Source: a phage. From it: a DNA stretch of 44,111 nt. Within the stretch, counting starts at the first letter, position 1. The number at the start of each line of letters is the position of its first letter. The notes under the pieces are model-generated. The model saw only the letters and a list, made by a program, of their open reading frames with translations. It had not been told where the DNA came from and searched no databases. Position numbers and translations under genes: made by a program. The stretch lies in sequence record PZ379076.1. One strand, given 5' to 3'. Positions 7,508-42,876 of this stretch are shown one piece after another.

Positions 7508-7510
7508 TAA

Positions 7511-7740: not shown

Positions 7741-7767
7741 TTTTCACCTCCTGCTTAAGTTAACTGA

Positions 7768-7796
7768 ATAGTACCCTATTATATTGGGGTGTGCAA
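7768..7796 (-). promoter_or_regulatory. promoter, TTGCAC-N17-TACTAT family
   Basis: Minus strand reads TTGCAC (7796-7791), 17-nt spacer with AATAG-N4-CTATT palindrome, TACTAT (7773-7768). Confidence 0.5.
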
Positions 7797-7862
7797 ACTA
7801 TTTATTTAATTATTCCAGTTATTCCGCTCAATTGTAAATGTTGGAATAAACTATTCGAATAG

Positions 7863-7891
7863 TTGACTTTTCACTAAAAATATGATAAGCT
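7863..7891 (+). promoter_or_regulatory. promoter of conserved element copy 1
   Basis: TTGACT (7863-7868), 17-nt spacer, TAAGCT (7886-7891); same arrangement at 39678-39706. Confidence 0.45.
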
Positions 7892-8000
7892 CCACCTGAG
7901 CTTGTGAAGTATGAACAAGCGACCGCGGCGCGGGCAGGTAACGGAGCGGGACGTAAGTCCTGAGTGTAGTTACGCTGACGCGTTCGGAAGGGCCATACTC
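7886..8000 (+). repeat. conserved ~115-nt element, copy 1 (candidate structured RNA or leader)
   Basis: First 43 nt identical to 39701-39743, then matching with two offsetting 1-nt indels through ...TTCGGAAGGGCCATA(C/A)TCTATTG; GCTTGT/ACAAGC stem 7900-7920. Confidence 0.85.
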
Positions 8001-8070
8001 TATTGCTTGTGTAAAAAGTAACGGGTTTACTGAGATTACGCCGTTTCTATGTTTAAATGATAAGGACTAG

Positions 8071-8099
8071 CGCCCCGCTTTAAGGCGGGGCTTTACTTA
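8071..8099 (+). terminator. hairpin plus U-rich tract (terminator or attenuator) before Rz
   Basis: Stem gccccgc (8072-8078) / gcggggc (8085-8091), then TTTACTTA; Rz ATG at 8116. Confidence 0.4.
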
Positions 8100-8115
8100 T
8101 CGAGAAAGGAGAAAC

Positions 8116-8502
8116 ATGAATCTTAAAGCAACCGTCGTAGCAGGAGCATGTTTCATCATCCTGGCTTACACACACGGCATTTATCAGTACCGCAGCGGCT
8201 GGCACGAAGGCCGCGCTAATCTCGTTTCGCAGCAACAGCAAAAAGCACAGGCTGAGTTAGCTAAGAAAACACAACGGCAGCAGCAGGACGAATCTAAGGC
8301 CGCCGCCGCCGATTCCAAAGGCAAGACGAAATCAGAGGTGATTACCCGTGAAGTCGTTAAGTACATTAAAACGCCTGGTCGCAGCGGGTGCGCTTTTGAC
8401 CCTGAGCGCGTGCAGCTCAAGTCCCGCGCCGTCGCAAACGCTAATTCCATTACCGGATACGACGATGATGCAGCCTCCGTGCAAACTGGCAGCGCCAAGT
8501 AG
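8116..8502 (+). CDS. Rz-like inner-membrane spanin
   Basis: 128 aa; N-terminal hydrophobic helix, Q/K-rich coiled-coil-like middle, and an overlapping lipoprotein gene in another frame. Confidence 0.65.
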   Translation: MNLKATVVAGACFIILAYTHGIYQYRSGWHEGRANLVSQQQQKAQAELAKKTQRQQQDESKAAAADSKGKTKSEVITREVVKYIKTPGRSGCAFDPERVQLKSRAVANANSITGYDDDAASVQTGSAK

Positions 8503-8611
8503 CGATGCTGACGAGGATTTGGCTATAGACGTTCAGAACGCCGAATGCGTGCGGCAACTGCGTCTGAAAGTATTCCAGTTGCAGGATTATGTGAGGAATA
8601 TTCTGGAATAG
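8348..8611 (+). CDS. Rz1-like outer-membrane lipoprotein spanin
   Basis: GTG start with GAGGTGA SD; signal peptide with lipobox LSAC, proline-rich mature part; starts inside Rz in another frame and runs past its stop. Confidence 0.65.
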   Translation: MKSLSTLKRLVAAGALLTLSACSSSPAPSQTLIPLPDTTMMQPPCKLAAPSSDADEDLAIDVQNAECVRQLRLKVFQLQDYVRNILE

Positions 8612-8693
8612 TTGCCTTGCATGTTGGAATAATTTATTCTTGACATGTAAATCCGGGTGGCCCGGGTTCCAACGTCCAGGGGACATACTGACT

Positions 8694-9398
8694 ATGAATC
8701 GTTTTTTACGTTATCCGTTCCAGGAAGAAGCTGGGGCAGAAGATAAAGCTGGTGGCGGTGACGCTCCTAAAATGTTCACCGCTGAAGAAGTTCAGGCGCT
8801 GATTGAGAAAGAAGTTGCCGGGCTTAAGGCTAATCAGGAAGCATTGTTGGCGGAGAAGAAAGAAGCCGCTCGCAAAGCAAAAGAGGCCGAAGAAGAACGG
8901 CAGCGCGCGCACCAGGAGGCGTTAAAAGCCGCTGGTAAGATGGATGAGTTCGAAAAGACGATTCGTAGCCAGTATGACCCGGTGTTAGCCGAGAAAGACG
9001 GTCGCATCTCCAGAATGGCAGAGCGTATCCTCGGCAGCGAACGTAAAGCGGTGCTAGGCTCTTTCGCGGGTGACTTTATTACCCCAGAAGCAGTGGACAT
9101 TCTTGCGCCGTTCGTTAAGACTGAGTTCGAAGGCGATGATGTGGTTACTAAGTTTGTTGGCGCAGACGGCAACGTAATCACGACTGACCCGGAACAGTTC
9201 CGCAAATACTTGCGAGAACACAAAGCGTTTTCACATTTGATTAAAGCAAATGCAGCTTCCGGCGGCGGGGCTTCCGGTAGCAAAGGCGGCGGGGCCGCAC
9301 CAGCGTTTAAAGACATGAGTGAAGCGGAGCGTATCGCTCTGTACGAATCGAACCCTGCCGAATTTGAACGGCAACTTAAAGCCCTGAGGAAAAAATAA
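8694..9398 (+). CDS. scaffolding protein (putative)
   Basis: ATG 8694 inside track ORF 8640-9398; charged helical composition; immediately upstream of the capsid gene. Confidence 0.55.
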   Translation: MNRFLRYPFQEEAGAEDKAGGGDAPKMFTAEEVQALIEKEVAGLKANQEALLAEKKEAARKAKEAEEERQRAHQEALKAAGKMDEFEKTIRSQYDPVLAEKDGRISRMAERILGSERKAVLGSFAGDFITPEAVDILAPFVKTEFEGDDVVTKFVGADGNVITTDPEQFRKYLREHKAFSHLIKANAASGGGASGSKGGGAAPAFKDMSEAERIALYESNPAEFERQLKALRKK

Positions 9399-10447
9399 TG
9401 GCAATTACTACTATCGGCGACATCGTAACTGGTAAAGAATCGGTAATCCTGTCCTACATGACAGAGGACCCGGTAGAGAAAACCGCGTTCTTCCAGTCCG
9501 GTATCCTTACCTCGACTCCGTATGCCGCCGCTATCGCAAACGGCCCGTCCAACAAAGCGGTCCTGCCGTACTGGAAAGCTATTGATACCTCTATCGAGCC
9601 GAACTACTCGAACGACGTATATCAGGACGTCGCCACCCCGCGTAACGTGCAAACCGGTGAGATGGATGTTCGCGTAGCTTACCTGAACGAAGGTTTTGGT
9701 CAGGCTGACCTGACGGTAGAACTGACCAGCCAGAATCCGCTGCAATCCGTGGCTTCCCGTCTGGATAACTTCTGGCAGCGTCAGGCACAACGCCGTCTTA
9801 TTGCTACCGCGCTCGGTCTGTACAATGATAACGTAGCGGCTACCGATGCGTACCACGAGCAGAACGACATGGTTATTGACGTGTCCGCTACTCTGGGCTT
9901 CGACTCCGGCGCGTTCATCGATGCTACCCAGACTATGGGCGATGCGCTGATGGGTAACGGTGGTGAAGTGCTTGGCGCTATCGCGATGCACAGCTTCGTT
10001 TATGCGCAGGCGCGTAAGCAGCAGCTTATCGACTTCATTCGCGACGCGGACAACAACACCATGTTCGCCACCTACCAGGGCTATCGTGTGATTGTTGACG
10101 ACAGCATGACCGTAGTCGGAACTGGCAACAGCCGTAAGTTCATCTCCATCATCTTCGGCAACGGTGCTATCGGTTACGGCGAAGGTTCTCCGTCAAACCC
10201 GCTGGAATACGAGCGCGAAGCGTCTCGCGGTAACGGTGGTGGTGTCGAAACCCTGTGGACCCGTAAGACCTGGTTGCTGCATCCGTTTGGTTACAGTTTC
10301 ACCAGCACTGTAATCACCGGCAACGGCACCGAGACTATCGCCCGCTCTGCTTCCTGGCAGGACCTGGCGAACGCTTCCAACTGGAACCGTGTGGTTGACC
10401 GTAAGCATGTACCGATTGCCTTCCTGGTAACTGGTGTCGGGGCTTAA
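9398..10447 (+). CDS. major capsid protein (HK97-fold type, putative)
   Basis: 349 aa after scaffold gene, followed by a strong terminator; assignment from size and synteny. Confidence 0.7.
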   Translation: MAITTIGDIVTGKESVILSYMTEDPVEKTAFFQSGILTSTPYAAAIANGPSNKAVLPYWKAIDTSIEPNYSNDVYQDVATPRNVQTGEMDVRVAYLNEGFGQADLTVELTSQNPLQSVASRLDNFWQRQAQRRLIATALGLYNDNVAATDAYHEQNDMVIDVSATLGFDSGAFIDATQTMGDALMGNGGEVLGAIAMHSFVYAQARKQQLIDFIRDADNNTMFATYQGYRVIVDDSMTVVGTGNSRKFISIIFGNGAIGYGEGSPSNPLEYEREASRGNGGGVETLWTRKTWLLHPFGYSFTSTVITGNGTETIARSASWQDLANASNWNRVVDRKHVPIAFLVTGVGA

Positions 10448-10463
10448 GGTTAAGATATAATCG

Positions 10464-10491
10464 AGAGGGACTTCGGTCCCTCTTTTCATTT
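10464..10491 (+). terminator. rho-independent terminator after the capsid gene
   Basis: Stem agagggac (10464-10471) / gtccctct (10476-10483), loop ttcg, then TTTCATTT. Confidence 0.7.
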
Positions 10492-10506
10492 ACTAAGAGG
10501 TAAATT

Positions 10507-10806
10507 ATGGCTAAGACCGGAAAAGGCTTGCCTCGCAGCCTTCAGAATGTCGACTTCGGCGACTTTGACATCCCAGTAACGCCGGCTACTACCAGCGTAG
10601 TTGGTGGGGTTAAAAAGTCAGCTACTGTAGCCGCCCCCGCGGCCATTACCGCTGCCGCCGGGTCGCAGTCCGCTGCGGACCCGACTAAGACCGAGTTCGA
10701 TGCCCTTGTAGCCGAGTACAACAAACTTCGAACTGATGTAACCGCGCTGCGCACTACCGTAGCAAATCTGTTGACTGCGCTTAAAAATGCAGGAACTGTA
10801 AGCTAA
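10507..10806 (+). CDS. hypothetical structural protein
   Basis: 99 aa; Ala/Thr-rich with C-terminal heptad-like segment; within head module. Confidence 0.55.
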   Translation: MAKTGKGLPRSLQNVDFGDFDIPVTPATTSVVGGVKKSATVAAPAAITAAAGSQSAADPTKTEFDALVAEYNKLRTDVTALRTTVANLLTALKNAGTVS

Positions 10807-10818
10807 AGGAGCTTAAAA

Positions 10819-11169
10819 ATGGTTGATGTAATCAAACGTCGTATTACTGGTGTTTCTGATGATTCTCCTGCCGATGGTCAGGTTGAAATCGATATGGCGA
10901 ATATCTCGCCCGCATCTTTTTCTACCGCACTTGCCGCTACCACTACCAAGTCTACGGGGCAGACGATGACTCTTACCGTAGCCGTAACTGGCGGTCTGGC
11001 CCCGTACACATACCAGTGGTACAAAGATAACAACGCTATCCCAGGCGCTACCGCCGCCACCTACGAGAAAACTTCGCTCGCTACTACCGATTCCGGTACG
11101 TATAAAGTGGTTGTCCACGATGTATATGGTAATATTATCTCCAGCAGCACCGTAGCAACTGTATCTTAA
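10819..11169 (+). CDS. Ig-like domain protein (Hoc-like decoration candidate)
   Basis: 116 aa; ...LTVAVTGGLAPYTYQWYKDNNAIPGATAATYEKTS...DSGTYKVVVHD resembles an Ig-like domain. Confidence 0.6.
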   Translation: MVDVIKRRITGVSDDSPADGQVEIDMANISPASFSTALAATTTKSTGQTMTLTVAVTGGLAPYTYQWYKDNNAIPGATAATYEKTSLATTDSGTYKVVVHDVYGNIISSSTVATVS

Positions 11170-11205
11170 TACCGCGGCCCTTCGGGGCCGTAATAAGGAA
11201 AGGTC

Positions 11206-11385
11206 ATGGCAGATAATTATGTAATCCGCGAAAAGTACACCCACGTTGATGTTGTTGACGGTCAGGTTATGCCCGTTCGCGGTGTTGTAGAAGCGGATGA
11301 ACTGGTAGCGGTTCAACCGGACAACGAAGAAGCGCACAACAACGGCGGTGGCACTAAGCGTCGCCGCCGTAAGTCAGAGGAATAA
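11206..11385 (+). CDS. hypothetical small protein (59 aa)
   Basis: ATG 11206 with GGAAAGG SD; basic tail GGGTKRRRRKSEE; below track size cut-off. Confidence 0.4.
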   Translation: MADNYVIREKYTHVDVVDGQVMPVRGVVEADELVAVQPDNEEAHNNGGGTKRRRRKSEE

Positions 11386-11388
11386 TTT

Positions 11389-11901
11389 ATGCCGCTAATC
11401 GTGGAAACTGGGGCAATCGTCCCGAATGCCGACAGTTACGTTAGTCTGGCTGACGCCCGCGCGTTAGCGGCTAATTATGGCCTGGAGCTACCGGAAGACG
11501 ATACTGCCACCGAAGTAGCCTTGCGCAACGGCGCTACTTATGTCGGGCTTGCAGAACCGCAGATGTGCGGCCGCCGTGTGTCCGCCGAGCAGTCCCTGGC
11601 GTACCCACGTACGGGAACAACACTAAACGGCTTCACCGTAGCTGATAATGTTATCCCACCGCAGTTAATCCGGGCGCAGGTAATCGCCGCTGTTACGTAT
11701 GGAGCGGGCACTGATGTTCGGGCTAACTCCGATGGACGTTCCGTGCAGACCGAGCGTGTAGAGGGTGCGGTAACAGTTACCTACTTCAACAACGGCAACA
11801 GCGGGGCCACAACCGCGATTACCGCCGCTGACGACGCCTTACGCCCGTTACTGTGTGGTGGTCTTAACAACGGCTTCTCATTTAATGTGTACCGGGGTTA
11901 A
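11389..11901 (+). CDS. hypothetical head-tail connector region protein
   Basis: 170-aa ORF in track between head and tail modules. Confidence 0.5.
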   Translation: MPLIVETGAIVPNADSYVSLADARALAANYGLELPEDDTATEVALRNGATYVGLAEPQMCGRRVSAEQSLAYPRTGTTLNGFTVADNVIPPQLIRAQVIAAVTYGAGTDVRANSDGRSVQTERVEGAVTVTYFNNGNSGATTAITAADDALRPLLCGGLNNGFSFNVYRG

Positions 11902-11903
11902 AA

Positions 11904-12518
11904 ATGGCGAAGACTAAATCAGAGATGTTTACTCTTATCGGCGCAAACCTCCCCGATAACACTACCGGGCTTATTACCCCAGCAGCGTTGCGCGAGGTAA
12001 TGACACAGATGGCTGACTCACCTATTTACGCCACTCCAGGTGTTAAAGAGGTTGAAGTTCTCCGTGCCGCGTCTACGGTAACCCAAGCGCCTACCGCGGT
12101 AGATACGGCATTGCAGTTAACTTTCGGTGCAGCTCAGGGTAGTGCATCCGACCCGGTAATGATTAATGCTGCGGGGCTGGTTACATTCAACACCGCCGGT
12201 AACTACGCCGTTCGCATCAAGTTACAGGCAGGCCGCACAGGTGCCAGCGGAACGTCAATCCTGCTATCACGTATTTTAGTAAACGGCGCTCAGTACGGCT
12301 CACCAGCCGCCACGAAACTGGTAAGCGCGGACACCACAATCCCGATTGAATCTCGCGTTGTTATTAACCCAACAGCAGGCCAGACTTTTGCCGTTCAGAT
12401 TATGCGGGATAGCGCCGGAAGCAACTTCGGCGGCGTATACCCGCAAGCGGCTACCGTAACCGCATGGGGTACAGCACCATCCGCGCTACTGGTTATCTCG
12501 AGACTGGAGGCCGCCTGA
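11904..12518 (+). CDS. hypothetical structural protein
   Basis: 204-aa ORF in track; stop overlaps next ATG. Confidence 0.55.
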   Translation: MAKTKSEMFTLIGANLPDNTTGLITPAALREVMTQMADSPIYATPGVKEVEVLRAASTVTQAPTAVDTALQLTFGAAQGSASDPVMINAAGLVTFNTAGNYAVRIKLQAGRTGASGTSILLSRILVNGAQYGSPAATKLVSADTTIPIESRVVINPTAGQTFAVQIMRDSAGSNFGGVYPQAATVTAWGTAPSALLVISRLEAA

Positions 12519-12877
12519 TGAGCACAGCTTTCAGTAAACGTATGCAAGGCGTAGGTACACGCCTGTTAACCAAATTCGGTAGCACGGTATCTCTGATTCG
12601 CGCTGGCTCGAAAGTGTGGGATGAAGTTCTCGGTGAGTACGTCTGGTCTGCGGATGAAGTGTTGCCGTTGAAGGCCGTTCCGGTTCCTGTTAATGCGGGT
12701 CTGGTGAACGGTACGACGATTCAGGCTGGTGACATGATTGTTAAAGCCGATTACAGCGTCGTTCCTAAGATGGAAGACAAAGTGCAATTCGGCGGCGAGC
12801 AATGGTCCGTCGTAGCCATTGAGAAGAAGGTGGTTAACGATGATGTTGTGTCCTACTTTATTCAGGTGAGAAAATGA
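12518..12877 (+). CDS. head-tail joining protein (putative)
   Basis: ATG 12518 (TGATG overlap) inside track ORF 12464-12877; neck-gene position. Confidence 0.45.
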   Translation: MSTAFSKRMQGVGTRLLTKFGSTVSLIRAGSKVWDEVLGEYVWSADEVLPLKAVPVPVNAGLVNGTTIQAGDMIVKADYSVVPKMEDKVQFGGEQWSVVAIEKKVVNDDVVSYFIQVRK

Positions 12878-13269
12878 GTTTCGCGCTGGACGTCTCTAAG
12901 TTCGTGGAAAAGGCGAAGAAGAACCCTGAGAAGGTGATGCGTCAGGTGTCTATCAAGCTGTTTTCCGCTATTATAAAGGCGAGTCCGGTAGATACTGGTC
13001 GGTTTCGCATGAACTGGATGGTATCTGGCGGTACTCCTGCTTCCGGGATTACGGATGCTACGGATAAATCAGGAAACACAGCAACCGGAAACGCTACAAG
13101 TTTCGTGCTGAAAGCCACCGACTGGCATGAGTTCACGCTGACAAATAACCTGCCGTATGCACAACGGCTGGAGTATGGCTGGTCGCAACAGGCCCCGCAA
13201 GGATTCGTCAGGACTAACGTGTCCCGCTTCCAGCAACTCATTAACGAAGAAGCTAGCAAGGTGAGATGA
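12874..13269 (+). CDS. neck / tail completion protein (HK97 gp10-like, putative)
   Basis: 131 aa; segment ...DTGRFRMNW...YAQRLEYGWSQQAPQGFV resembles the gp10 family pattern. Confidence 0.45.
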   Translation: MSFALDVSKFVEKAKKNPEKVMRQVSIKLFSAIIKASPVDTGRFRMNWMVSGGTPASGITDATDKSGNTATGNATSFVLKATDWHEFTLTNNLPYAQRLEYGWSQQAPQGFVRTNVSRFQQLINEEASKVR

Positions 13270-13682
13270 TGGGCTACTTTGAGGACTTAACAAAAGCGTT
13301 TGATGTGCCGCTGGTAGCCTTCGGAACCACCAACGGCATCAAGGTAGCGCTTGAAAACATCGACGCGCCGACGTCAACAGATACGCCGTATCTGGCAAGT
13401 TACATGTTGCTGGCGGATACCGAGCAGGCTGACTTATTCTTCACGGAACAACGCGCCGGTGTCTATCAGATAGACATTAACTACGCATCGGTGAAAGGTA
13501 GCGCGCCAATCAATAAAATGGCAGACTTACTTAACACGGCGTTTAAATCAGGTAAGGCATTTTCGCGTAACGACATCTGCGCCGAGGTTCAATCGGTTAG
13601 CCTGGGGCCGCTGATTGTAGAAAACGGATGGGCCAAACGACCATTGTCAATTAACTTTATTGCATTCACCAAGAGGCTGTGA
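13266..13682 (+). CDS. hypothetical tail protein (tail terminator position)
   Basis: 138-aa ORF in track, ATGA overlap, directly before the major tail gene. Confidence 0.45.
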   Translation: MMGYFEDLTKAFDVPLVAFGTTNGIKVALENIDAPTSTDTPYLASYMLLADTEQADLFFTEQRAGVYQIDINYASVKGSAPINKMADLLNTAFKSGKAFSRNDICAEVQSVSLGPLIVENGWAKRPLSINFIAFTKRL

Positions 13683-13684
13683 AT

Positions 13685-14851
13685 ATGGCTACAACTCCTT
13701 TTAAGGGCGCGAATACCGCGCAATTCTATGTGGCGGAAACTACCCCGGGCGTAACACCGGCTAACCCTGTCTGGTCGCCGTTGCGTAACACTGGCGGTGT
13801 TCCTGCCGTAACCCGCGATGCGCTGACTTCCAACGAACTAGACGGCAGCCGTGAAACTACATCCATCCGAACCGGTAACAAACAGGTTAGCGGGGAGTAC
13901 GCCATCGAACTTAGCTCTCGTAGCCAGGATGATTTCCTTGCGGGAGCGATGACTTCTACGTGGCAAGCTGGGGTAGAGATTACTGGCGCCGAAATTACGG
14001 TCGCCCCAGCAGGTAAAACATTCACCCGCGCTGCCGGTAGCTTCATTACTGACGGTGTAGAAGTTGGCGACCTTATTGCGTTCACCGACTTAACCGGCGA
14101 CAACGCAAAACCGTTTATCGTGACCGCGGTTTCCGCTCTGGTAGTTACGGGCGCAGGTATTCAGCACACGCTGACAGCAGAGACAGTAACCACTGACGCA
14201 AAAACTGGCGACAAGCTGGAAACCGGTAACGCGTGTAAGACGTTCTCCATCCTGACGTGGTTCAAGGGCCAGTGTGGTAACCCGGACGCGTACATGCTGA
14301 CCAAAGGTGTGGAAATCTCTGGCTTTACCGTAGAGCAGGCGGTTAACGCCATGGTCACCGGCAGCTTCCCGTTCATCGGCCTGAGTCAGGAGATTCTTAC
14401 CGCGCCGCCGTCTGGCTCTGATTTCTCTCAGGTTACGTTCACCGATGAGCCGTTCTCGTCGGTAGATGTGTCGGTGTTCGATGGCTCCACGCCGTTGCGT
14501 TGCGATACTCTCACCATCACCAACGACAACGGAGCTTCCGCGCAGTTCGAACTCGGTAACAGTAGCGTGGCGTTCGTCGAACGTGGACGCGCAGCTAACA
14601 CATTCTCTATCTCTGGCAAGCTGTACGACATGGCGATGATTCAGAAGTTTATCAACGAGCAGCAGGTAGAGATTAACTCTATTCTGGCAGGGGTAAACGG
14701 GGCTATGTCTTTCAGTTTGAAACGTGCAGAGCTTACGGCGGTTACACCTGAGATTGGTGGGCCTGAGTCAATCACTCAGTCCATTGAAGGCCAGGCTACC
14801 GGCAATCAGTACCAGTCGTCTATCGTAATTCAACGTATCACCTACGCATAA
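13685..14851 (+). CDS. major tail protein (putative)
   Basis: ATG 13685 with AAGAGG SD inside track ORF 13679-14851; large Thr/Gly-rich protein upstream of chaperones and tape measure; followed by strong terminator. Confidence 0.6.
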   Translation: MATTPFKGANTAQFYVAETTPGVTPANPVWSPLRNTGGVPAVTRDALTSNELDGSRETTSIRTGNKQVSGEYAIELSSRSQDDFLAGAMTSTWQAGVEITGAEITVAPAGKTFTRAAGSFITDGVEVGDLIAFTDLTGDNAKPFIVTAVSALVVTGAGIQHTLTAETVTTDAKTGDKLETGNACKTFSILTWFKGQCGNPDAYMLTKGVEISGFTVEQAVNAMVTGSFPFIGLSQEILTAPPSGSDFSQVTFTDEPFSSVDVSVFDGSTPLRCDTLTITNDNGASAQFELGNSSVAFVERGRAANTFSISGKLYDMAMIQKFINEQQVEINSILAGVNGAMSFSLKRAELTAVTPEIGGPESITQSIEGQATGNQYQSSIVIQRITYA

Positions 14852-14856
14852 AACTA

Positions 14857-14880
14857 AGGCCCCTTTCGGGGCCTTTTTCT
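14857..14880. terminator. bidirectional rho-independent terminator
   Basis: Stem aggcccc (14857-14863) / ggggcct (14868-14874), loop tttc, T-run after it; sits between convergent genes. Confidence 0.75.
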
Positions 14881-15434
14881 TACAAACCTAATTTTAAAGC
14901 AATGTCTATAACGTTCGATTTAACGTCACCCGGTATGATGTAGGTGTCGTAATCTTTTACACCACTAACATCGTACAGATAGCCACGGCTATCGCAGATG
15001 AACGTATAGCCGTCACGATGGAGGCGGACGATTCGCACGTCATGCCCCGCGGCGACGATAGGGGCAACTTCACTGGCGAATCCACCATCGGACACTACAA
15101 AAACTTCGTCGCCGTCAGGCAAGTTTTCAGCAAGATACTTACCGAAATAATCATCGCCGAATACCGGTTTAATGAATTGCTCAGAAATGGCAATCATTAA
15201 CCGGCGGCGGGACAACCCATTAAGAAAACCCTCGGGTTTTTCTTTCCGCGCCCGGTCGTCGTAGCCGTCGAGAAATTCGTGGTAAGCATCCTGGCCTAAC
15301 GCTGCCAAAGCAATATTGAACATTGGGTTCTTGAAACTGGTAGTTCCTTTCGCAAAGCCCATTTCTACCAGCGCCATAGCAAGCGTGTCTTTCCCGCAAC
15401 CCGCAGGGCCATTAAGAATAATTACCTTAGCCAT
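14880..15434 (-). CDS. P-loop nucleotide kinase (dNMP-kinase-like)
   Basis: 184 aa; Walker A GPAGCGKDT, a GKDT-type P-loop as in T4 gp1-type dNMP kinases. Confidence 0.65.
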   Translation of the reverse strand: MAKVIILNGPAGCGKDTLAMALVEMGFAKGTTSFKNPMFNIALAALGQDAYHEFLDGYDDRARKEKPEGFLNGLSRRRLMIAISEQFIKPVFGDDYFGKYLAENLPDGDEVFVVSDGGFASEVAPIVAAGHDVRIVRLHRDGYTFICDSRGYLYDVSGVKDYDTYIIPGDVKSNVIDIALKLGL

Positions 15435-15922
15435 TATTTATCGCTCCCGTGTGGTTTTAAGTGTGTAGAGTTCCCGTTACAGTCGTATTCGGTAACTGCG
15501 TGTGCGGTTATGCCGAGGTCACGGAAATGCTTTATTACCGCTGGGGAGTCGTCGAACGCACACAAGATTCTTTCCAGTCCGAAAGCACGCAACACCTCTT
15601 CTTTAATTACGATGTCTTTTCTGTTGTCGTGTTTGCTGCGCATGATTAGCGTGTCAAACCTAACGTTATTCTCTCGTAACCATTCGCGAGTCTCCTCCTC
15701 AGCGTCATCACTTCGCCCGGTAAGGATAATTATAGTAAGTCCGGAATGCCACAGTACGCTACACAAATGGATATTGTCGTATATCGGAGCGTCATCTTTG
15801 CAGGCCATGTTAAATGGCTTCCACGCCCACGTTTCTCCGTAGTTATCTTTTGGTAACAGGTGTAAGCGATGGGTACCGTCGGCCAATGTCCCGTCTAAAT
15901 CGAAAATTACAATATCTTTCAT
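15434..15922 (-). CDS. HAD-superfamily phosphatase (nucleotidase or 3'-phosphatase-like)
   Basis: 162 aa; N-terminal IFDLDGTLADG is HAD motif I. Confidence 0.7.
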   Translation of the reverse strand: MKDIVIFDLDGTLADGTHRLHLLPKDNYGETWAWKPFNMACKDDAPIYDNIHLCSVLWHSGLTIIILTGRSDDAEEETREWLRENNVRFDTLIMRSKHDNRKDIVIKEEVLRAFGLERILCAFDDSPAVIKHFRDLGITAHAVTEYDCNGNSTHLKPHGSDK

Positions 15923-17049
15923 CCCAGCATCTCCGGTGAAATAGTTAAACGTGCGACCTCGCCATATTCGGCGCTATAAGTAATTACATTTGCACTGCGG
16001 CCCGACATCCATCCGCCGCGAGAGGCGTAGGCGTCTTTAGCCGCTAAGGTGCGGTGTTGCTCAACAATCATGTTACGGCTTTCTACAATCTTCTGGTGGT
16101 GCAGATGGCCTACGTGGGCGTAGCTGTAAACACTCTCGCCGAACGCTTTACGGAACTTGGCAATCATAACCGGTTCGATAGCGTCGAATCGTGCTTTATG
16201 CCCGTGATGGAAGAACAGCGTCGTTTTGCCGTGTTGCACCATCTTGTAAACATCCGGCGACGTATCGACGAACACGCGCGGCTCATTGTCGTACAGCGTA
16301 CTGAACATCTCAGCCAACCAAATCATACCCGATTCGTCGTGATTCCCTTGCACGATAAGCAAGCGAACATTTTTATGCTTAACCAACGCCATATCAACGA
16401 CACGGCGGACCATACGAATCATGTAACGGACCAGTTTCTGATAGCGCGTGTCAGCGTCAAGGACATGACCGCTTGCGGGCGTAACGGCATCAAGACTATC
16501 GAAGTGCGCTAAGTCGCCAAGAAGATTGATAACCCCAGTACCGGCATCCGGTGCTTTCTGGAATGCTGCATCGAACCAACGAGAGAACAGGTCTTCCGCA
16601 ATCTTCATGTCCCAGTCGTCGCCACTCTCGTCGGCCCAGGCCAGCATACCGAGATGGAAATCGGATACAGTGTAAAGATTGAGCAGCTTATCGTCCCGTT
16701 TGGCACGAACGGCTTTAACAGGTGCAACGGGCGTAATCTCCGATTTCATGCCTTCGATCACGGCTTTCATCAATTCAACCTGACGTTCGGCGTCAGTGTC
16801 GGTCTTAACCCATTGCAACTTAGTGTTGCCGAACTCATCCACCAGTGACGACGTACCTTTAATCTTATAGCCGTCCGGGACAAGGTGGCTAACATCACGT
16901 CCGTGACCTACACCTTTCTTAGCCAGCTTCGCTTTACGGATACGAATTACGCGGTCTGAGATGCCGTATTTACGGGCGATGTCTACATTCTTCATTCCGG
17001 CGTTCAATTCTTCCTGTAACTGTTCGTCGGTTATTTTCTTCCGGGCCAT
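15919..17049 (-). CDS. calcineurin-like metallophosphoesterase with N-terminal HTH-like segment
   Basis: 376 aa; metal-binding motifs VSDFHLG, GDLAHFD, GNHDE, GHLHH in canonical order; N-terminal ~45 aa basic helix-turn-helix-like. Confidence 0.7.
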   Translation of the reverse strand: MARKKITDEQLQEELNAGMKNVDIARKYGISDRVIRIRKAKLAKKGVGHGRDVSHLVPDGYKIKGTSSLVDEFGNTKLQWVKTDTDAERQVELMKAVIEGMKSEITPVAPVKAVRAKRDDKLLNLYTVSDFHLGMLAWADESGDDWDMKIAEDLFSRWFDAAFQKAPDAGTGVINLLGDLAHFDSLDAVTPASGHVLDADTRYQKLVRYMIRMVRRVVDMALVKHKNVRLLIVQGNHDESGMIWLAEMFSTLYDNEPRVFVDTSPDVYKMVQHGKTTLFFHHGHKARFDAIEPVMIAKFRKAFGESVYSYAHVGHLHHQKIVESRNMIVEQHRTLAAKDAYASRGGWMSGRSANVITYSAEYGEVARLTISPEMLG

Positions 17050-17087
17050 GCTTACTTCCTCGTGTTTAGGATTTGTCTTATAGTAGC

Positions 17088-17279
17088 CTACTTCTCTTTC
17101 ACGTTCGAGTTACAAGCCCAGATTAAAATGAATACCCACGGCAACAGAACCCACCCGAGAAATAAGTTAGCCATGAATATCGCTAGCTTTGCTTTATGGT
17201 TTCGCATATGGGCCACAAAAAACGGGATAAAATAAACGCCTACAACAATAATTAAAAAGAACATAGCGATACCGGTCAT
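17088..17279 (-). CDS. small two-helix membrane protein (superinfection-immunity-like, putative)
   Basis: ATG 17279 with AGGAG SD (track ORF opens at 17306); two hydrophobic helices around HMRNHKAKLAIFMANLFLGW. Confidence 0.4.
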   Translation of the reverse strand: MTGIAMFFLIIVVGVYFIPFFVAHMRNHKAKLAIFMANLFLGWVLLPWVFILIWACNSNVKEK

Positions 17280-17321
17280 AACATAACTCCTGATTTGAGA
17301 TAACATCGTTGGTGTAAGTGA

Positions 17322-17350
17322 ATAGTACGCTATTATATCAGGGTGTGCAA
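17322..17350 (-). promoter_or_regulatory. promoter, TTGCAC-N17-TACTAT family (drives the minus-strand cassette)
   Basis: TTGCAC (17350-17345), 17-nt spacer with AATAG-N4-CTATT, TACTAT (17327-17322) on minus strand. Confidence 0.5.
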
Positions 17351-17457
17351 GTAGTATGTTAGAATAATTTTGCGCCTAGTGTCGCACACGAAAAGCGGGT
17401 GGTTCCCGTCTGGCGCATTTCCTTTAACCAGTAACCTCTTAACCAAAGGATTAAAGA

Positions 17458-17874
17458 ATGAAACTTTCTGATTTTTATTACGAAGCTGAAGCTGAAAAGG
17501 GTGCACGTATGCCGATACCATTAAAAGACGGTACCGATTCCGGGGAATGGCTTAATGTTGTTTCTCCTGAGGCAGACGTTGCCGTTAAGGCTATGCGCGC
17601 GTTCACCCTTGCATACCGGGCAGTGTTAGGGAAATTAAAACCGCTTCGTGATAAGTGCGAAGAGATGAAAGATTTCTCTGAATACAACCTGAAGATGGAA
17701 GACGCGGCGACGGACCTTAACCGTCAGTTAGCGGTTGAATTGGTTAACGGGTGGAGCCTTGACGACGAATTCAATAAAGAGAATCTGAACACACTCCTGA
17801 CGCAATATAAACGACTCGCGGAACTTGTTGTTGTGTTTCATAACGAACAACTGCACCAGCTACAGGAAAAGTAG
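17458..17874 (+). CDS. tail assembly chaperone (putative, G-like)
   Basis: 138 aa immediately upstream of the tape measure gene; AAAGGA SD. Confidence 0.5.
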   Translation: MKLSDFYYEAEAEKGARMPIPLKDGTDSGEWLNVVSPEADVAVKAMRAFTLAYRAVLGKLKPLRDKCEEMKDFSEYNLKMEDAATDLNRQLAVELVNGWSLDDEFNKENLNTLLTQYKRLAELVVVFHNEQLHQLQEK

Positions 17875-17879
17875 ACGCG

Positions 17880-18239
17880 TTGCTCCAGTTCGCCCGTTGG
17901 AACTTCATAACCCGCCACAAACGGCGGGAATTTGACAGTATCGCCGATGGGCATAAAGCCGCGCTAATTGCTATGGGGGTTATGCAAGACGCGCCGGACG
18001 CAACGCAGGCCACTGGGCCGGAATGCCCCCCTGAACTACTAACCACATTTGAGAAGTACAGGGAAATTAAATTCACCCGCCGAGTGGACGACGACGGCAT
18101 CAAGATGTACCCGCGCGAGCAATTACGATGGTCAGATTTAGTGGCGTACAGCACCGTTTCAGGCCAGAATATAGGGATGTTCGAATCTGACATCATCATG
18201 AGCTTAGACGCTATTTTCGAGGGTAGAAACGATGGCTGA
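17880..18239 (+). CDS. possible -1 frameshift extension of the tail assembly chaperone (T-like)
   Basis: -1 frame open from 17844, overlapping the last 10 codons of 17458-17874 which end ...CAG GAA AAG TAG; track ORF opens on TTG. Confidence 0.3.
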   Translation: MLQFARWNFITRHKRREFDSIADGHKAALIAMGVMQDAPDATQATGPECPPELLTTFEKYREIKFTRRVDDDGIKMYPREQLRWSDLVAYSTVSGQNIGMFESDIIMSLDAIFEGRNDG

Positions 18240-29704: not shown

Positions 29705-29734
29705 TTCTCAATTCCTTATATTGTTGGTGTAAGG

Positions 29735-30019
29735 CTAACTATAATAGTTCGCTATTAGGGTGTCAACCTGTTTGAACGAACCAACTACAAAAACATTTGC
29801 ACCACGCTTACGCATCCGCTCGTGCTCTCGTAACTGGTGCGGGTCAGGCTTCGTGCTTTCGTCTTTCTTCACCTCGACGAACCAGACGATGCCGCCAGGG
29901 AGAATTACCAGCAGGTCGGGAGCGCCGGAACGCCCCTCGTAGGAAAGTTTACGAACGAGGCCCCCAAGGGCCTCAAATCGCTCTTTTGCGTATTTCTGGA
30001 TGCGGCCCTCTTTAGTCAT
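29735..30019 (-). CDS. VRR-NUC-like PD-(D/E)xK nuclease
   Basis: ATG 30019 inside track ORF 29735-30199; ...GAPDLLVILPGGIVWFVEVKKDES...QLREHERM fits the D...E-V-K nuclease core. Confidence 0.55.
   Translation of the reverse strand: MTKEGRIQKYAKERFEALGGLVRKLSYEGRSGAPDLLVILPGGIVWFVEVKKDESTKPDPHQLREHERMRKRGANVFVVGSFKQVDTLIANYYS
29738..29766 (-). promoter_or_regulatory. strong sigma70-type promoter, TTGACA-N17-TATAGT family
   Basis: Minus strand TTGACA (29766-29761), 17-nt spacer with AATAG-N4-CTATT, TATAGT (29743-29738). Confidence 0.65.
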
Positions 30020-30168
30020 GACCGCAGCATCCAGGTAAGGAAAGCCCCGCCTAGAAGGGCAACACCGGCAAACTGAAAGAACAGGCCGTAACAGAACATA
30101 GCAGCTATTCCCGCACCGAGTAACAGTGCGAGCATGGTTACTATCGACCCGAATACAAACATTCTCAT
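30016..30168 (-). CDS. hypothetical 50-aa membrane peptide
   Basis: ATG 30168, translation MRMFVFGSIVTMLALLLGAGIAAMFCYGLFF...; GAGGGG SD; stop overlaps next start (ATGA). Confidence 0.35.
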   Translation of the reverse strand: MRMFVFGSIVTMLALLLGAGIAAMFCYGLFFQFAGVALLGGAFLTWMLRS

Positions 30169-30254
30169 AACACGCACCCCTCACGTTTGGTATGCTCAAT
30201 ACCGCAGCGCGGGCAGATTCGACAGTCTTCTTCGTAGAACCGGTAAATTTTCAT
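30165..30254 (-). CDS. hypothetical 29-aa Cys-rich peptide
   Basis: ATG 30254, translation MKIYRFYEEDCRICPRCGIEHTKREGCVL; ATGA-coupled on both sides. Confidence 0.3.
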   Translation of the reverse strand: MKIYRFYEEDCRICPRCGIEHTKREGCVL

Positions 30255-30382
30255 TCCAGCACCCACAGATAAATTGCGATGAACATACCCAATATGGCAA
30301 CCATCATGCCGTATTGACCCTCGTGACAGTAGACACCTGCGGCAAATCCCGCCAGTACCGCGATAATCAGTTTACTTAACAT
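30251..30382 (-). CDS. hypothetical 43-aa membrane peptide
   Basis: ATG 30382 with AGGAG SD, overlapping the last codons of the polymerase gene; translation MLSKLIIAVLAGFAAGVYCHEGQYGMMVAILGMFIAIYLWVLE. Confidence 0.35.
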   Translation of the reverse strand: MLSKLIIAVLAGFAAGVYCHEGQYGMMVAILGMFIAIYLWVLE

Positions 30383-33238: not shown

Positions 33239-33293
33239 TTCTCGATTCCTCAGTTTTCAGTTTACTCCGGGAGCTGCCCGGCCAGTGATTAGA

Positions 33294-33322
33294 ACTATAA
33301 TAGCTAACTATTCAGGTGTCAA
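33294..33322 (-). promoter_or_regulatory. strong sigma70-type promoter, TTGACA-N17-TATAGT family
   Basis: Minus strand TTGACA (33322-33317), 17-nt spacer with AATAG-N4-CTATT, TATAGT (33299-33294). Confidence 0.65.
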
Positions 33323-35843: not shown

Positions 35844-36071
35844 TTACTCGCCGTCGCCTTCTGTAAGGCTATCGTCTATTAATTCAAATTTACCGTTTGG
35901 GTGTTGAATAGCTTCTTGCCCGCAATGGTCGCAGACAACAAGTTTATCGAACCCATCAAACTCGTCCCCGACTACGCAAGAAAGTACAAATTTATGTTTT
36001 GTGCACACTTCCTGCGATTCTCCGAAAATTGCTAGAAAACCTTTAGCTATGGCTCCCGTTATTGTGTTCAT
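35844..36071 (-). CDS. small Cys/His zinc-ribbon-like protein
   Basis: 75 aa; VCTKHKF...VVCDHCGQE, same C-x-H ... C-x2-C-G pattern as repeats in the 41733-42491 protein; first gene behind the 36100 promoter. Confidence 0.55.
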   Translation of the reverse strand: MNTITGAIAKGFLAIFGESQEVCTKHKFVLSCVVGDEFDGFDKLVVCDHCGQEAIQHPNGKFELIDDSLTEGDGE

Positions 36072-36099
36072 ATCCGCCCCTCTCGTTTGGTATGGGCTA

Positions 36100-36128
36100 A
36101 CTATAATAGCGAACTATTCACATGTCAA
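36100..36128 (-). promoter_or_regulatory. strong sigma70-type promoter, TTGACA-N17-TATAGT family
   Basis: Minus strand TTGACA (36128-36123), 17-nt spacer with AATAG-N4-CTATT, TATAGT (36105-36100). Confidence 0.65.
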
Positions 36129-36192: not shown

Positions 36193-36408
36193 ATGCAACC
36201 ATCTGAACTAGGTATCCGTGTAGAACAACGCCGTAAAGAACTCGGCATCTCCCAGCGCCGTTTGGCGGCCCTGACCGGCGTTTCCCAGGGCGCGATTAAC
36301 CAACTGGCACTTGGAGTAACTCAGGACGTCCGCCCGGCAACGCTGTTCAAACTGGCGGAAGTTCTGGAAGTAGACGCCAAGTGGCTGGCGTTAGGTGAAG
36401 GGGCTTAA
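36193..36408 (+). CDS. HTH transcriptional regulator (XRE / Cro-CI-like)
   Basis: 71 aa; ISQRRLAALTGVSQGAINQL is a helix-turn-helix signature; AAGGAG SD; only plus-strand gene in the minus-strand region. Confidence 0.7.
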   Translation: MQPSELGIRVEQRRKELGISQRRLAALTGVSQGAINQLALGVTQDVRPATLFKLAEVLEVDAKWLALGEGA

Positions 36409-39677: not shown

Positions 39678-39706
39678 TTGACTTTTACTAAGAAATGTGC
39701 TAAGCT
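39678..39706 (+). promoter_or_regulatory. promoter of conserved element copy 2
   Basis: TTGACT (39678-39683), 17-nt spacer, TAAGCT (39701-39706). Confidence 0.45.
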
Positions 39707-39815
39707 CCACCTGAGCTTGTGAAGTATGAACAAGCGACCGCGGTGCGGCAGGAAACGGAGCGGTGCGTCAGCACTGAGTGTAGTGTCGCTGCCTGCATTC
39801 GGAAGGGCCATAATC
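39701..39815 (+). repeat. conserved ~115-nt element, copy 2
   Basis: Matches 7886-8000; stem-loop GGUGC-gtca-GCACU at 39762-39775 replaces GGGAC-gtaa-GUCCU of copy 1. Confidence 0.85.
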
Positions 39816-40590: not shown

Positions 40591-40748
40591 GAGAAGCATT
40601 CGAACGGTGGGCCATCGTCGAGGGTCTGCCGGTTAATAAGGGTTCGAAGAAAGAGTACCTGAACGTTAAGACGCGTCTCGCGTGGCGGGCGTGGAAAGCT
40701 GGTGCGAATGTAATGGCTGGCGCATTTGAGAAGAGAGGCGATTTATGA
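40587..40748 (+). CDS. hypothetical small protein (53 aa)
   Basis: ATGA overlaps on both sides; translation MREAFERWAIVEGLPVNKGSKKEYLNVKTRLAWRAWKAG... Confidence 0.4.
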   Translation: MREAFERWAIVEGLPVNKGSKKEYLNVKTRLAWRAWKAGANVMAGAFEKRGDL

Positions 40749-40930
40749 GCAAGTGGATTAAGTGTAGTGAGCGGATGCCGGAGCCTTATGAATACGTTCT
40801 TGTAACTGATTGTTTTGTTGGCTGTGAGGTTATGCGTGTTAATTCAGATGGCTACTGGGGGCCCGCAAAGAGTTTATATCACGGAGATATAACGCACTGG
40901 ATGCCGTTACCTGAGCCGCCGGAGGTGTGA
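40745..40930 (+). CDS. DUF551-like small protein
   Basis: 61 aa; MSKWIKCSERMPEP...VLV...THWMPLPEPPEV shows the W-x3-(K/N)-x3-(M/L)PE start and THWM-x-LPE-x-P end. Confidence 0.6.
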   Translation: MSKWIKCSERMPEPYEYVLVTDCFVGCEVMRVNSDGYWGPAKSLYHGDITHWMPLPEPPEV

Positions 40931-41301: not shown

Positions 41302-41451
41302 ATGGTTACTTTGATGATTATGGAGTTCGAAAACAGTACCGCGACTTATCGCGAGATGACTATGGCGCAGGCGTACCACCTGGCCTCAAACGGCAATTTC
41401 TACAAGGCTCAAATCATCAATGAGTTCGGGGTAATTGACTATGAATTTTAG
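41302..41451 (+). CDS. hypothetical small protein (49 aa)
   Basis: ATG 41302 after GAGGAGAGA leader; below track cut-off. Confidence 0.45.
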   Translation: MVTLMIMEFENSTATYREMTMAQAYHLASNGNFYKAQIINEFGVIDYEF

Positions 41452-41713
41452 AAGCTACACCGTGACCGTTGATTTTGAGGGGTTGGAGTTGCCCCTCCCT
41501 AACAACTACAGGTATATAACTCGTGACCGTTTCGGGTTTATTCAGGGGTGGCGTAACAAACCAACAGACACTGAGTTCGGGATGTCTGGTGGAGAAGAGT
41601 TGCCAATCACTTTCGGGCATCAGAGCGGCCTTGAAGAACTTAAAACGGTGATTCGTAAGTATCGCCGCCGCGGTAATACCGGCCTTATAGCAATAACAGG
41701 CGCTGTTGAATAA
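41441..41713 (+). CDS. hypothetical protein
   Basis: ATG 41441 inside track ORF 41435-41713, overlapping the upstream gene end. Confidence 0.5.
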   Translation: MNFRSYTVTVDFEGLELPLPNNYRYITRDRFGFIQGWRNKPTDTEFGMSGGEELPITFGHQSGLEELKTVIRKYRRRGNTGLIAITGAVE

Positions 41714-41732
41714 ACGAGAGGAGAGAAAGAAG

Positions 41733-42491
41733 ATGAACAACAAAAACGAAGTATTCGAGTACCTGATTGACCAACTACGGCAGCAGCTACCAGTTGTAGA
41801 TGTAATGGGTGAAATCAAACGGTGGAGTATTGACCGTAGTATTGCTGGCCGCGGTAACTATACAGACGAGGAAAATGCCGTAATAGATGCCTATATCGGC
41901 CTGGAGCACAGCCCGTACAAGCAACAGTGCGAAGACCTGGCACACGAGGTGCAGTCACTTAAAAACCAGTTACGCGATGCGTCGGCGCAGATTAAGGAAC
42001 TAACCTGTGCGCTGGATTGCGTTGAAAAGGAGGTTATGTGTCTTCGTTCAATCGTTAACCTGGGCCCTAAAGGCGCGATTGGGTACATCCGGCGGGCAAA
42101 TAGTGCAATGACTGACACCCTGCGCCGCCAATACCTTAGCAAAGCACTTGAGGAACTCGGATGTAAGGATGCGCCAGAACAATCCGGTTGCCGTAAAGAG
42201 GGTGCACAGGAGTGCGAGCACTCATGGATTATTATGCCTGGTAGCGAGCTTTGTTCTAAATGTGGTAAACGTGAGTGGGATGACGCGGAATATAAACCGA
42301 AAAACGATACACAGGAATGCGAGCACGATTGGGTTCTTGATGAAAAGGGTGACTACTTCGTTTGTTATAAGTGTGGAAGGCAGGAAGCGGAATTGAACGC
42401 TTGTCGGCACACCAATACCGTTGGTTTGCGTAAGGGCTTTGCACCTGGTTTTACTAAAAAGTGTCTTGATTGTGGGGCTAAACTTAAATGA
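41733..42491 (+). CDS. hypothetical protein with tandem Cys/His zinc-ribbon-like repeats
   Basis: ATG 41733 after aaacgagaggagaga leader (track ORF opens at 41706); repeats QECEHSWI...CSKCGKRE and QECEHDWV...CYKCGRQE; contains the GYIRRANSA segment shared with 354-554. Confidence 0.6.
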   Translation: MNNKNEVFEYLIDQLRQQLPVVDVMGEIKRWSIDRSIAGRGNYTDEENAVIDAYIGLEHSPYKQQCEDLAHEVQSLKNQLRDASAQIKELTCALDCVEKEVMCLRSIVNLGPKGAIGYIRRANSAMTDTLRRQYLSKALEELGCKDAPEQSGCRKEGAQECEHSWIIMPGSELCSKCGKREWDDAEYKPKNDTQECEHDWVLDEKGDYFVCYKCGRQEAELNACRHTNTVGLRKGFAPGFTKKCLDCGAKLK

Positions 42492-42691
42492 CCAGCATCT
42501 TATTTATCTGGGTATTGTCCGCAGGCCAGATGCAACTCGCAGCATCGGAAACGTTTTACTCGATGGAGGCGTGCCAGTCAGCGGCACGCGCTGCAGAGAA
42601 CGCGCACTTTCTGTTTCAGGGCGACAAGCCCAACGATTCAGAGGTACGCGCTATCTGCTCACCTAAGAGACTTGGTAAACAGGAGAAGTGA
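42488..42691 (+). CDS. hypothetical small protein with N-terminal signal-like segment
   Basis: 67 aa; N-terminal MTSILFIWVLSAGQMQLAAS is hydrophobic; ATGA overlap. Confidence 0.5.
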   Translation: MTSILFIWVLSAGQMQLAASETFYSMEACQSAARAAENAHFLFQGDKPNDSEVRAICSPKRLGKQEK

Positions 42692-42693
42692 TT

Positions 42694-42876
42694 ATGGTGC
42701 AGAGATATACCTACGACCAGATATTCGGGTTTACTCCTGATGTTGAGGGCGTGTTAGTGCTTTACGAAGATTACGCGAAACTTGAAGCTGAGTTACAGAA
42801 ATACAAAGACCAGTACCCTGATTACGTCGAGTGCGCGAACTGTGGGTCGGTTACACATGTGGAGGGGGTGGAGTGA
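42694..42876 (+). CDS. hypothetical protein
   Basis: ATG 42694 with AGGAGAAG SD inside track ORF 42688-42876; CANCGS motif. Confidence 0.5.
   Translation: MVQRYTYDQIFGFTPDVEGVLVLYEDYAKLEAELQKYKDQYPDYVECANCGSVTHVEGVE

Follow-up and report, generated by a model that had tools for sequence, protein, structure and literature searches.

The open reading frame (ORF) at positions 41733–42491 of phage record PZ379076.1 encodes a protein that, judged by sequence comparison, is hyper-mosaic, is built from cassettes and belongs to an uncharacterised family of phage proteins. The window, by which we mean the whole 44,111-nucleotide (nt) stretch of DNA that was analysed, resembles Kagunavirus (Guernseyvirinae) siphophages of Escherichia coli such as Bas72, Bas71 and SHAK7858 at about 86–91% nucleotide identity, and is evidently an essentially whole or near-complete 44-kb genome of that genus. 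The ORF lies on the plus strand, where it comprises 252 codons plus a stop and is preceded by the Shine–Dalgarno sequence GAGAGGAGAG. We favour, with a probability of roughly 0.6, a reading in which a conserved scaffold carries exchangeable cassettes that recombine at short joints; with lower certainty, the product would be a coiled-coil oligomer that presents interchangeable protein-binding heads.

The diversity of the family is the first line of evidence for this reading. A search of 5.8 billion proteins returned 862 homologous clusters of 140–291 amino acids, almost all of them from contigs about 44 kb long. By tblastn, 322 records of Guernseyvirinae contain the gene, their hosts being Escherichia, Salmonella and a few others, and no record has at least 80% of the window's version in one piece. 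The whole ORF belongs to PHROG 6094, a Guernseyvirinae-wide mosaic protein family, and matches its profile (E = 2.1e-52) in two stretches, residues 1–186 against profile positions 1–113 of 142; the match is split because two inserts, here called Ia and M1, interrupt it. Members share a module order: an N-terminal helix (N), an optional insert (Ia or Ib), a coiled-coil core (CC), a variable helical module, the joint PEQSGCRKEDxQ (L) and zero to four mini-domains. When the 120 best representatives of the family were annotated with eleven module queries, about 100 distinct architecture strings emerged, that of the window, N-Ia-CC-M1-L-Zs-Zd-Zt, occurring once. The scaffold formed by N and CC has a ratio of nonsynonymous to synonymous polymorphism (pN/pS) of 0.11 over 435 pairs, which indicates purifying selection and hence a functional gene rather than debris.

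Modules of the 252-residue protein

An AlphaFold2 (AF2) model of the protein, made from 120 sequences, has a mean predicted local distance difference test score (pLDDT) of 74 and contains a long helix at residues 61–108 (pLDDT 84–94), a disordered stretch at 148–160 and three small β-hairpin units. The modules, all on the plus strand, can be followed along this model. The N module (41733–41786) is a nearly invariant amphipathic helix, MNNKNEVFEYLIDQLRQQ (MSNKNEVFEYLIDQLRQQ), modelled at residues 3–18, and its end, LRQQ, is a recombination joint. Next stands Ia (41787–41909; LPVVDVMGEIKRWSIDRSIAGRGNYTDEENAVIDAYIGLEH; LPVVDVMGEIKRWS...IGLEH), an optional two-helix insert with helices at 24–38 and 45–58, and then the CC module (41910–42002), a nearly invariant coiled-coil core, QQCEDLAHEVQSLKNQLRDASAQIKEL, which lies within the long helix and carries the joint SAQIKEL. 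The middle position is taken by cassette M1 (42003–42176; TCALDC...GAIGYIRRANSAMTDTLRRQYLSKALEELGCKDAP), the first helix of which is continuous with the coiled coil in the model and is followed by helices at 112–124 and 128–141; alternatives at this position in the family include M2 (HLALVRATGDAEAYKLIRK), M3 and others. Joint L (42177–42212; EQSGCRKEGAQE), nearly invariant from E149 to K155 and predicted to be a disordered linker (pLDDT below 50 at 148–160), stands before every C-terminal cassette array. These arrays consist mostly of CxH...CxxCG units of several subtypes, and some include a CxC-type unit or an SH3-like W...W cassette.

A reading made from the sequence alone had described three Cys/His units in this protein, and that description holds. 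The putative zinc ligands are C161/H163/C174/C177, C196/H198/C211/C214 and C224/H226/C244/C247. Of 986 six-frame ORF segments in the window, only the one encoding this protein matches the pattern CxH-x(5-32)-CxxC, and it does so three times; in 20,000 shuffled versions of the protein, three or more matches never occurred. When 214 units were taken from 120 homologues, 183 fell into one large cluster and 26 into a separate one (the terminal type CRHTNTVGLRKGFAPGFTKKCLDCG). A hidden Markov model (HMM) of the unit, seeded with the ligand pattern and built on 155 non-redundant units of the large cluster from relatives, recovers unit 1 (E = 5.5e-9) and unit 2 (E = 6e-15) but in unit 3 reaches just the CxxCG knuckle (E = 1.9); units 1 and 2 are therefore one repeat family, and unit 3 is a different cassette type. 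Among all other ORFs of the window this HMM found nothing better than E = 0.4.

The conservation within the units would fit a small metal-binding fold. Most of these mini-domains are about 20–35 residues of the form CxH...CxxCG, with a Trp after the CxH of the first knuckle. Across 209 distinct units the ligand columns hold C in 204, H in 207, C in 196 and C in 198, and the Trp and Gly are kept in 184 and 194, respectively, with the positions in between varying freely. Four Cys/His ligands in two knuckles are thus retained across homologues, as in zinc ribbons, and the pattern is the signature of a putative metal-stabilised mini-domain. The model has predicted short strands at 165–168/171–174, 200–202/209–211 and 229–233/240–244 (pLDDT 58–78). 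It has no significant fold match, and the Pfam zinc-ribbon families DZR (PF12773), Zn_ribbon_13 (PF09855) and DUF5817 score 10.7–12.8 bits against cut-offs of 23–31, all with E above 0.1.

Each unit has its own character. Unit 1, of type Zs (42213–42317; CEHSWIIMPGSELCSKCGKRE plus spacer; β-hairpin at 165–174), aligns with Salmonella phage S532 at 92.7% nucleotide identity, with 39 nt missing relative to that phage. The Zs copy of the window (42228–42245) is without the 13 residues LFLSEGNPNNVPG that sit between two PG dipeptides in most Zs copies, apparently owing to a deletion between two direct repeats that encode PG. Unit 2, of type Zd (42318–42398; CEHDWVLDEKGDYFVCYKCGRQE), lies in a DNA block, 42300–42491, common to Bas72 and XY2. 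Unit 3, of type Zt (42399–42488; CRHTNTVGLRKGFAPGFTKKCLDCGAKLK), is the distinct basic terminal cassette that falls into the 26-unit cluster; its isoelectric point (pI) is 9.9, compared with 4.9 for unit 1, 4.4 for unit 2 and 5.55 for the whole protein.

Recurrence of the cassettes and probable exchange at the joints

Three of the modules are also found in other settings. M1 is homologous to a free-standing 66-residue protein encoded on the plus strand at 354–554. The recurrence of the central segment in that ORF had been proposed from the sequence alone, and both pairwise alignment and HMM–HMM comparison now support it. BLASTP aligns the two with 24/49 identities (47.8 bits, E = 7e-13); an HMM of the 66-residue family finds the protein among the 986 ORFs of the window at E = 7e-14, the next best value being 3; and hhalign of that family against M1-only segments gives 98.7% probability (E = 3e-16, 39 columns, 59% identity). 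M1-only segments were used because non-homologous middle modules share columns in the mixed family alignment, against which the probability is only 83%. No similarity between M1 and ORF 354–554 was detected at the DNA level, so the relationship is old and not a recent transfer. In an all-against-all comparison of the ORF proteins of the window this was the only significant pair involving these genes.

The free-standing and embedded forms of M1 differ in distribution. M1 is present in 49 of the 120 best family representatives; as a gene of 65–66 residues it is found in 27–28 phage records (Kagunavirus and, at 66% identity, Salmonella phages of about 41 kb), and as a cassette in only two cultured-phage records, with both forms occurring together in SHAK7858 and in the window. 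The AF2 model of the 66-residue protein is a predicted three-helix bundle (pLDDT 81; helices 6–23, 27–44 and 49–65), for which Foldseek returned generic three-helix bundles only.

Ia and the zinc-type units reach further. An exhaustive phmmer search of 1.84 billion representatives returned 81 proteins. Ia, as a module of 37–50 residues, is present in three pairs of them, P0198/P0200, P0205/P0207 and P0212/P0216, at E values from 1e-11 to 1e-15. The first pair (PHROG 23836) is the counterpart gene in St162- and TS6-type Salmonella phages and follows the same CC-Ia-joint-Zn grammar, where Zn denotes a zinc-type unit; the other two are proteins of temperate enterobacterial phages with parts of the PHROG 60/660 type, among whose relatives one is labelled 'Ea22' and another, a fragment, 'EaA'. 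The CEHEW...CSKCG units, for their part, occur as three to five tandem copies directly after the signal peptide of proteins of 2600–4200 residues (P0201, P0211 and P0217), with E = 9e-9 for P0201 in the whole library, and these giant proteins have no Pfam domains. One of them is encoded at 6001–18216 of a metagenomic contig (locus L008) that also carries CodY, TopA and a GGDEF/EAL gene; the presence of CodY and TopA indicates a Firmicutes-like source and a bacterial chromosome. Because the arrays stand behind a signal peptide they are extracellular, which puts zinc versus disulfide stabilisation in question for the whole unit family. Taken with the free-standing M1 and with Ia in other proteins, the units of these giant surface proteins suggest that the cassettes may be independent folding units.

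The DNA points to the places of probable exchange. In an alignment of the window to five relatives, homology over 41333–41789 runs through LRQQ and then ends; it resumes at 41909/41925–41998, the CC module, which is conserved in all relatives aligned, again at 42174–42220, which is joint L, then over Zd plus Zt in the block shared with Bas72 and XY2, and from 42488 onward in the next gene. Between these blocks, Ia (41790–41908) is missing from Bas72, SHAK7858 and S532, M1 (about 42001–42176) is found only in EP-B-K_E2 and SHAK7858, and Zs (42221–42299) only in Salmonella phage S532. The ends of DNA homology thus coincide exactly with the short conserved joints LRQQ, SAQIKEL and KEDxQEC-H. Furthermore, joints are doubled around inserted cassettes: LRQQ...LRQQ flanks Ib, and SAQIKEL...(E)S(A/V)QIKEL flanks an M3-type insert. 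The nucleotide core of joint L, CAATCYGGTTGCCG, is kept whatever cassette comes next, and KEDxQEC(E)H precedes each successive unit, appearing in the window as a 39-nt repeat, 42195–42233 and 42300–42338, with 74% identity. A recent tandem duplication of units 1 and 2 was considered and rejected, since the repeat is confined to this joint.

These features suggest that diversity may arise by in-frame homologous or microhomology recombination at the joints between co-infecting relatives. A deletion caught in an IMG/VR locus (L019, 1501–2115) is instructive. Compared with locus L017 and with 42688–42876 of the window, about 370 nt are lost with a 14-nt overlap, which joins the family gene to the final codons of the 42688–42876 homologue; the fusion passes through two CxNCG-coding stretches, the gene in between is removed, and the product ends ...CDNCGSVTHVEGVE. 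Such short repeats therefore do recombine. The sequence-only reading had spoken of modular shuffling among early genes. Shuffling itself is strongly supported, by about 100 architectures in 120 representatives and by Ia and the zinc-type units in other proteins, but within the genome only one gene pair shares a module, and 'early' is doubtful on grounds given below. The shuffling evidently takes place mainly across orthologues in other Guernseyvirinae and with other proteins, not among the genes of the window.

Chemistry, expression and competing roles

What such a protein might do can be approached through its chemistry and its setting. The scaffold would oligomerise through its coiled coil; the invariant N-terminal helix and CC might bind a conserved partner; and the acidic, putatively zinc-stabilised heads might serve as interchangeable protein-binding modules, the pI of 4.4–4.9 of units 1 and 2 favouring protein binding over nucleic-acid binding. 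The variable partners of the heads would most plausibly be host factors in phage–host conflict, and the combinatorial turnover of heads might then reflect selection imposed by host factors that vary, defence or takeover targets for example. The gene would be an accessory gene, with a product that is perhaps not an enzyme. A bolder version, which we regard as speculative and rather unlikely, holds that the joints (LRQQ, SAQIKEL and CAATCYGGTTGCCG...CAGGARTG), which are conserved in nucleotide sequence, are maintained so as to permit in-frame exchange of heads between co-infecting phages, like cassettes in a rack. Each head, whether a zinc-type subtype, the SH3-like cassette, M1 or Ia, would recognise or neutralise a different host factor, the whole would be a reprogrammable, multivalent counter-defence or host-takeover adaptor, and the free 66-residue M1 would be a soluble head or its partner.

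Several points weigh against the scaffold-and-cassette reading. The list of 120 best representatives behind the count of architectures is biased towards the query, and many Salmonella Jerseyvirus records have one common architecture. The unit HMM was seeded with the ligand pattern, so that the count of conserved ligands is partly circular. Both 400-nt flanks could be aligned in only 7 of 351 locus pairs and the neighbouring genes are also mosaic, so the plasticity is partly regional and need not imply selection on this gene; likewise, a comparison of flank identity with architecture gave no readable signal, the flanks themselves being mosaic. In addition, the protein, its neighbours and the alternative cassettes match only coiled-coil noise or entries of 'unknown function' in Pfam, NCBIfam and PHROGs, and no function emerges for any module from Pfam, NCBIfam, PHROGs, PDB or BFVD. 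A profile search of PDB sequences with the family gave coiled-coil matches only, Foldseek of the AF2 model gave nothing significant in PDB and only uncharacterised family members in BFVD, and a literature search found nothing published on the gene.

Of the alternatives, the one that fares best is that the protein is a nucleic-acid-binding regulator, a coiled-coil dimer that sets a number of zinc ribbons on DNA or RNA, for instance in transcription control or the protection of DNA ends. Nucleic-acid binding is common among zinc ribbons, Zt at the C-terminus is basic, and the best fold matches, weak as they are, are the tandem zinc-ribbon proteins TFS4 and YfgJ. However, these matches are not significant (E = 0.45 and 3.7), and units 1 and 2 as well as the protein as a whole are acidic. 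Also, the units number from zero to four, vary in type and can be replaced by non-zinc cassettes, which is hard to square with a fixed DNA or RNA target. We therefore consider this role improbable.

A second alternative arises from the position of the gene. The gene is one of a series of small plus-strand ORFs that follows a divergent region, opens near 40041 and runs on into the holins, which lie at 43245, some 750 bp downstream of the gene. Because the genome ends are arbitrary, the rightward direction of transcription runs on into the start of the window, where ORF 354–554 sits; both M1-bearing genes thus share a rightward operon that also carries holins. At the head of this operon, which comprises the small ORFs, the gene under study and the lysis genes, stands a plus-strand promoter-like element (39678–39748), TTGACT and TAAGCT at a spacing of 17 with a TGn motif and a conserved leader, which recurs at 7863–7933, inside the head-morphogenesis module, as a 71-nt direct repeat that is 89% identical. 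The conserved leader is about 45 nt and its predicted fold is not significant (z = -0.96). A consensus promoter scan does not list the element at 39678, and its interpretation as a promoter is our own. Since the operon is shared with holins and the promoter repeat is otherwise found only in the head module, the label 'early' given to the gene in the sequence-only reading is doubtful; a transcriptome study of the Kagunavirus K1B4 classes most genes as 'middle', which is too coarse to time this one.

This setting invites the view that the protein is an assembly- or lysis-associated accessory factor expressed with the late genes, perhaps a scaffold-like or chaperone coiled coil on which the heads are dispensable decoration. 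The sole second copy of the promoter-like element and its leader lies in the head-morphogenesis module, the holins are near, and there are weak coiled-coil matches to Phage_scaffold (E = 0.023), all of which is in keeping with this view. The Pfam matches are nevertheless below the cut-off and typical of coiled-coil noise, and the gene sits among small unknown accessory ORFs, outside the structural module. As structural partners are conserved, this view would also leave the turnover of heads unexplained, and we judge it less likely still than nucleic-acid binding.

The leftward replication operons, including one that begins with ORF 35844–36071, use a different type of promoter, TTGACA-17-TATAGT. 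It is found on the minus strand within a 34-nt element with an internal palindrome (AACTATAATAG...CTATT) that occurs in four copies, 4453–4486, 29733–29766, 33289–33322 and 36095–36128, and these elements are probably leftward promoters with an operator. The copy at 36095 lies just upstream of the 75-residue ORF 35844–36071 and adjoins a Cro/CI-like helix-turn-helix ORF at 36193–36408.

Several other ORFs merit description. On the plus strand, 40745–40930 encodes a free-standing 61-residue DUF551 domain (Pfam E = 1.3e-15), another small domain found both alone and within larger phage proteins; it also matches part of PHROG 60, a large mosaic PHROG likewise matched by the Ia-bearing P0207 and P0212. 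The plus-strand ORF 42688–42876 (62 residues, PHROG 29624) has a single, C-terminal CxxCG knuckle and a weak match, below the cut-off, to the restriction-alleviation protein Lar (E = 0.056). In the structural region, the plus-strand ORF segments 10807–11166 and 7028–7504 are 36% identical over 74 residues (E = 7e-6) and may be paralogous head or neck proteins. Finally, record OR594183.1 (vB_EcoM_SHAK7858) has a taxonomy line of Autographiviridae/Kayfunavirus and an 'M' for myovirus in its name, and its sequence is collinear with Kagunavirus siphophages; it is probably mislabelled.

A third alternative, that the protein is an inhibitor of RecBCD or another nuclease, related to T7 gp5.9 and acting through its coiled-coil core, was rejected as very unlikely. 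The family profile does match T7 gp5.9 (8b1r_P and 9gmb_I) over 28 residues that include SLKNQL, and both proteins have a short coiled coil with this motif. The match is not significant, however (E = 0.11), and the rest of the list consists of generic coiled coils; moreover, the spacing of the N-terminal helix relative to SLKNQL differs. The charge character differs as well: the CC module is near neutral (charge -1.5, pI 5.5), whereas we take the pI of gp5.9, which is strongly acidic as expected for a DNA mimic, to be about 4.1.

Two further ORFs bear on the question of chance. The unit had been thought to recur in the 75-residue product of 35844–36071, and a shorter Cys cluster in that of 30165–30266. 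The former is a genuine gene that represents a small family of its own (PHROG 32657), in which C23, H26, C32, C47 and C50 are invariant, so that its product is plausibly metal-binding, but its pattern is CxxH rather than CxH and it shows no significant similarity to the unit by BLASTP (E = 0.4) or unit HMM (E = 1.1). The latter (33 residues, PHROG 38225, CxxCxxC) likewise has no significant similarity to the protein by BLASTP or the unit HMM (E = 1.5). Both clusters apparently belong to separate families unrelated to the units described here, and neither of the two proposed relationships is supported. That all the similarities are chance or low-complexity matches among short Cys-rich proteins suits these two ORFs (E = 0.1–1.5, the looser pattern of the first recurring in four other ORF segments) but is wholly implausible as a general explanation, being excluded for units 1 and 2, for M1 and ORF 354–554, and for the three-fold CxH...CxxC pattern.

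On present evidence, then, the gene encodes an uncharacterised accessory protein, with two of four proposed similarities and the 'early' label corrected. If the scaffold-and-cassette reading is true, the family would be a compact case, provided by nature, of domains shuffled in frame at defined joints, showing the re-assortment of very small binding modules by phages and supplying a set of zinc-stabilised mini-domains of about 20–35 residues. The family occurs in small, easily engineered phages, of which the BASEL isolates Bas70–76 are available.

Comparison with known systems

It is informative to set the protein beside better-described designs. Like generic and tandem zinc ribbons such as archaeal TFS4 and E. 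coli YfgJ, its units have short CxH and CxxC knuckles, which may sit on predicted β-hairpins, four conserved ligands and a tandem arrangement; unlike them, they match no curated zinc-ribbon family significantly in sequence or fold, and the CxH of the first knuckle is followed by Trp. The giant Firmicutes-type proteins P0201, P0211 and P0217 share the mini-domain down to its non-ligand residues (QEC-E-H-x-W-V...C-x-KCG) and its tandem repetition, although they are far larger, carry their arrays after a signal peptide and come from a bacterial chromosome contig. A phage mini-domain is in this way linked to arrays at the N-termini of giant surface proteins of Firmicutes.

The overall design finds its nearest parallel in lambda Ea22 and the 'ea'-region mosaic proteins of temperate enterobacterial phages. 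Ea22 is described as a tetramer in which a coiled coil links a short N-terminal domain to a variable C-terminal one; it is highly diverse between related phages, and its partner is unknown (PMC10834534, PMC7093339). The AF2 model and the family comparison reveal the same succession of N-terminal domain, coiled coil and variable C-terminus here, which is a resemblance and not membership: the protein is not listed for Pfam Ead_Ea22 (PF13935) at E up to 1, whereas the lambda Ea22 control gives E = 1.1e-28, and membership was rejected. BLASTP likewise finds no significant similarity of lambda Ea22 to the family, nor of the protein to its counterpart in phage PhiR47_1. The latter is the full-length relative of P0205/P0207, with which our protein has Ia in common; it bears the depositors' label 'Ea22' and is itself without a Pfam Ead_Ea22 match. 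Kagunavirus members have been isolated and characterised as lytic phages (PMC11990801), so a pro-lysogenic role is not obviously applicable. The C-termini also differ in kind, being an array of putative zinc mini-domains here and one α/β domain in lambda Ea22. By analogy, the protein appears to belong with the mosaic coiled-coil accessory proteins of phages, among which lambda Ea22 would be the closest design described.

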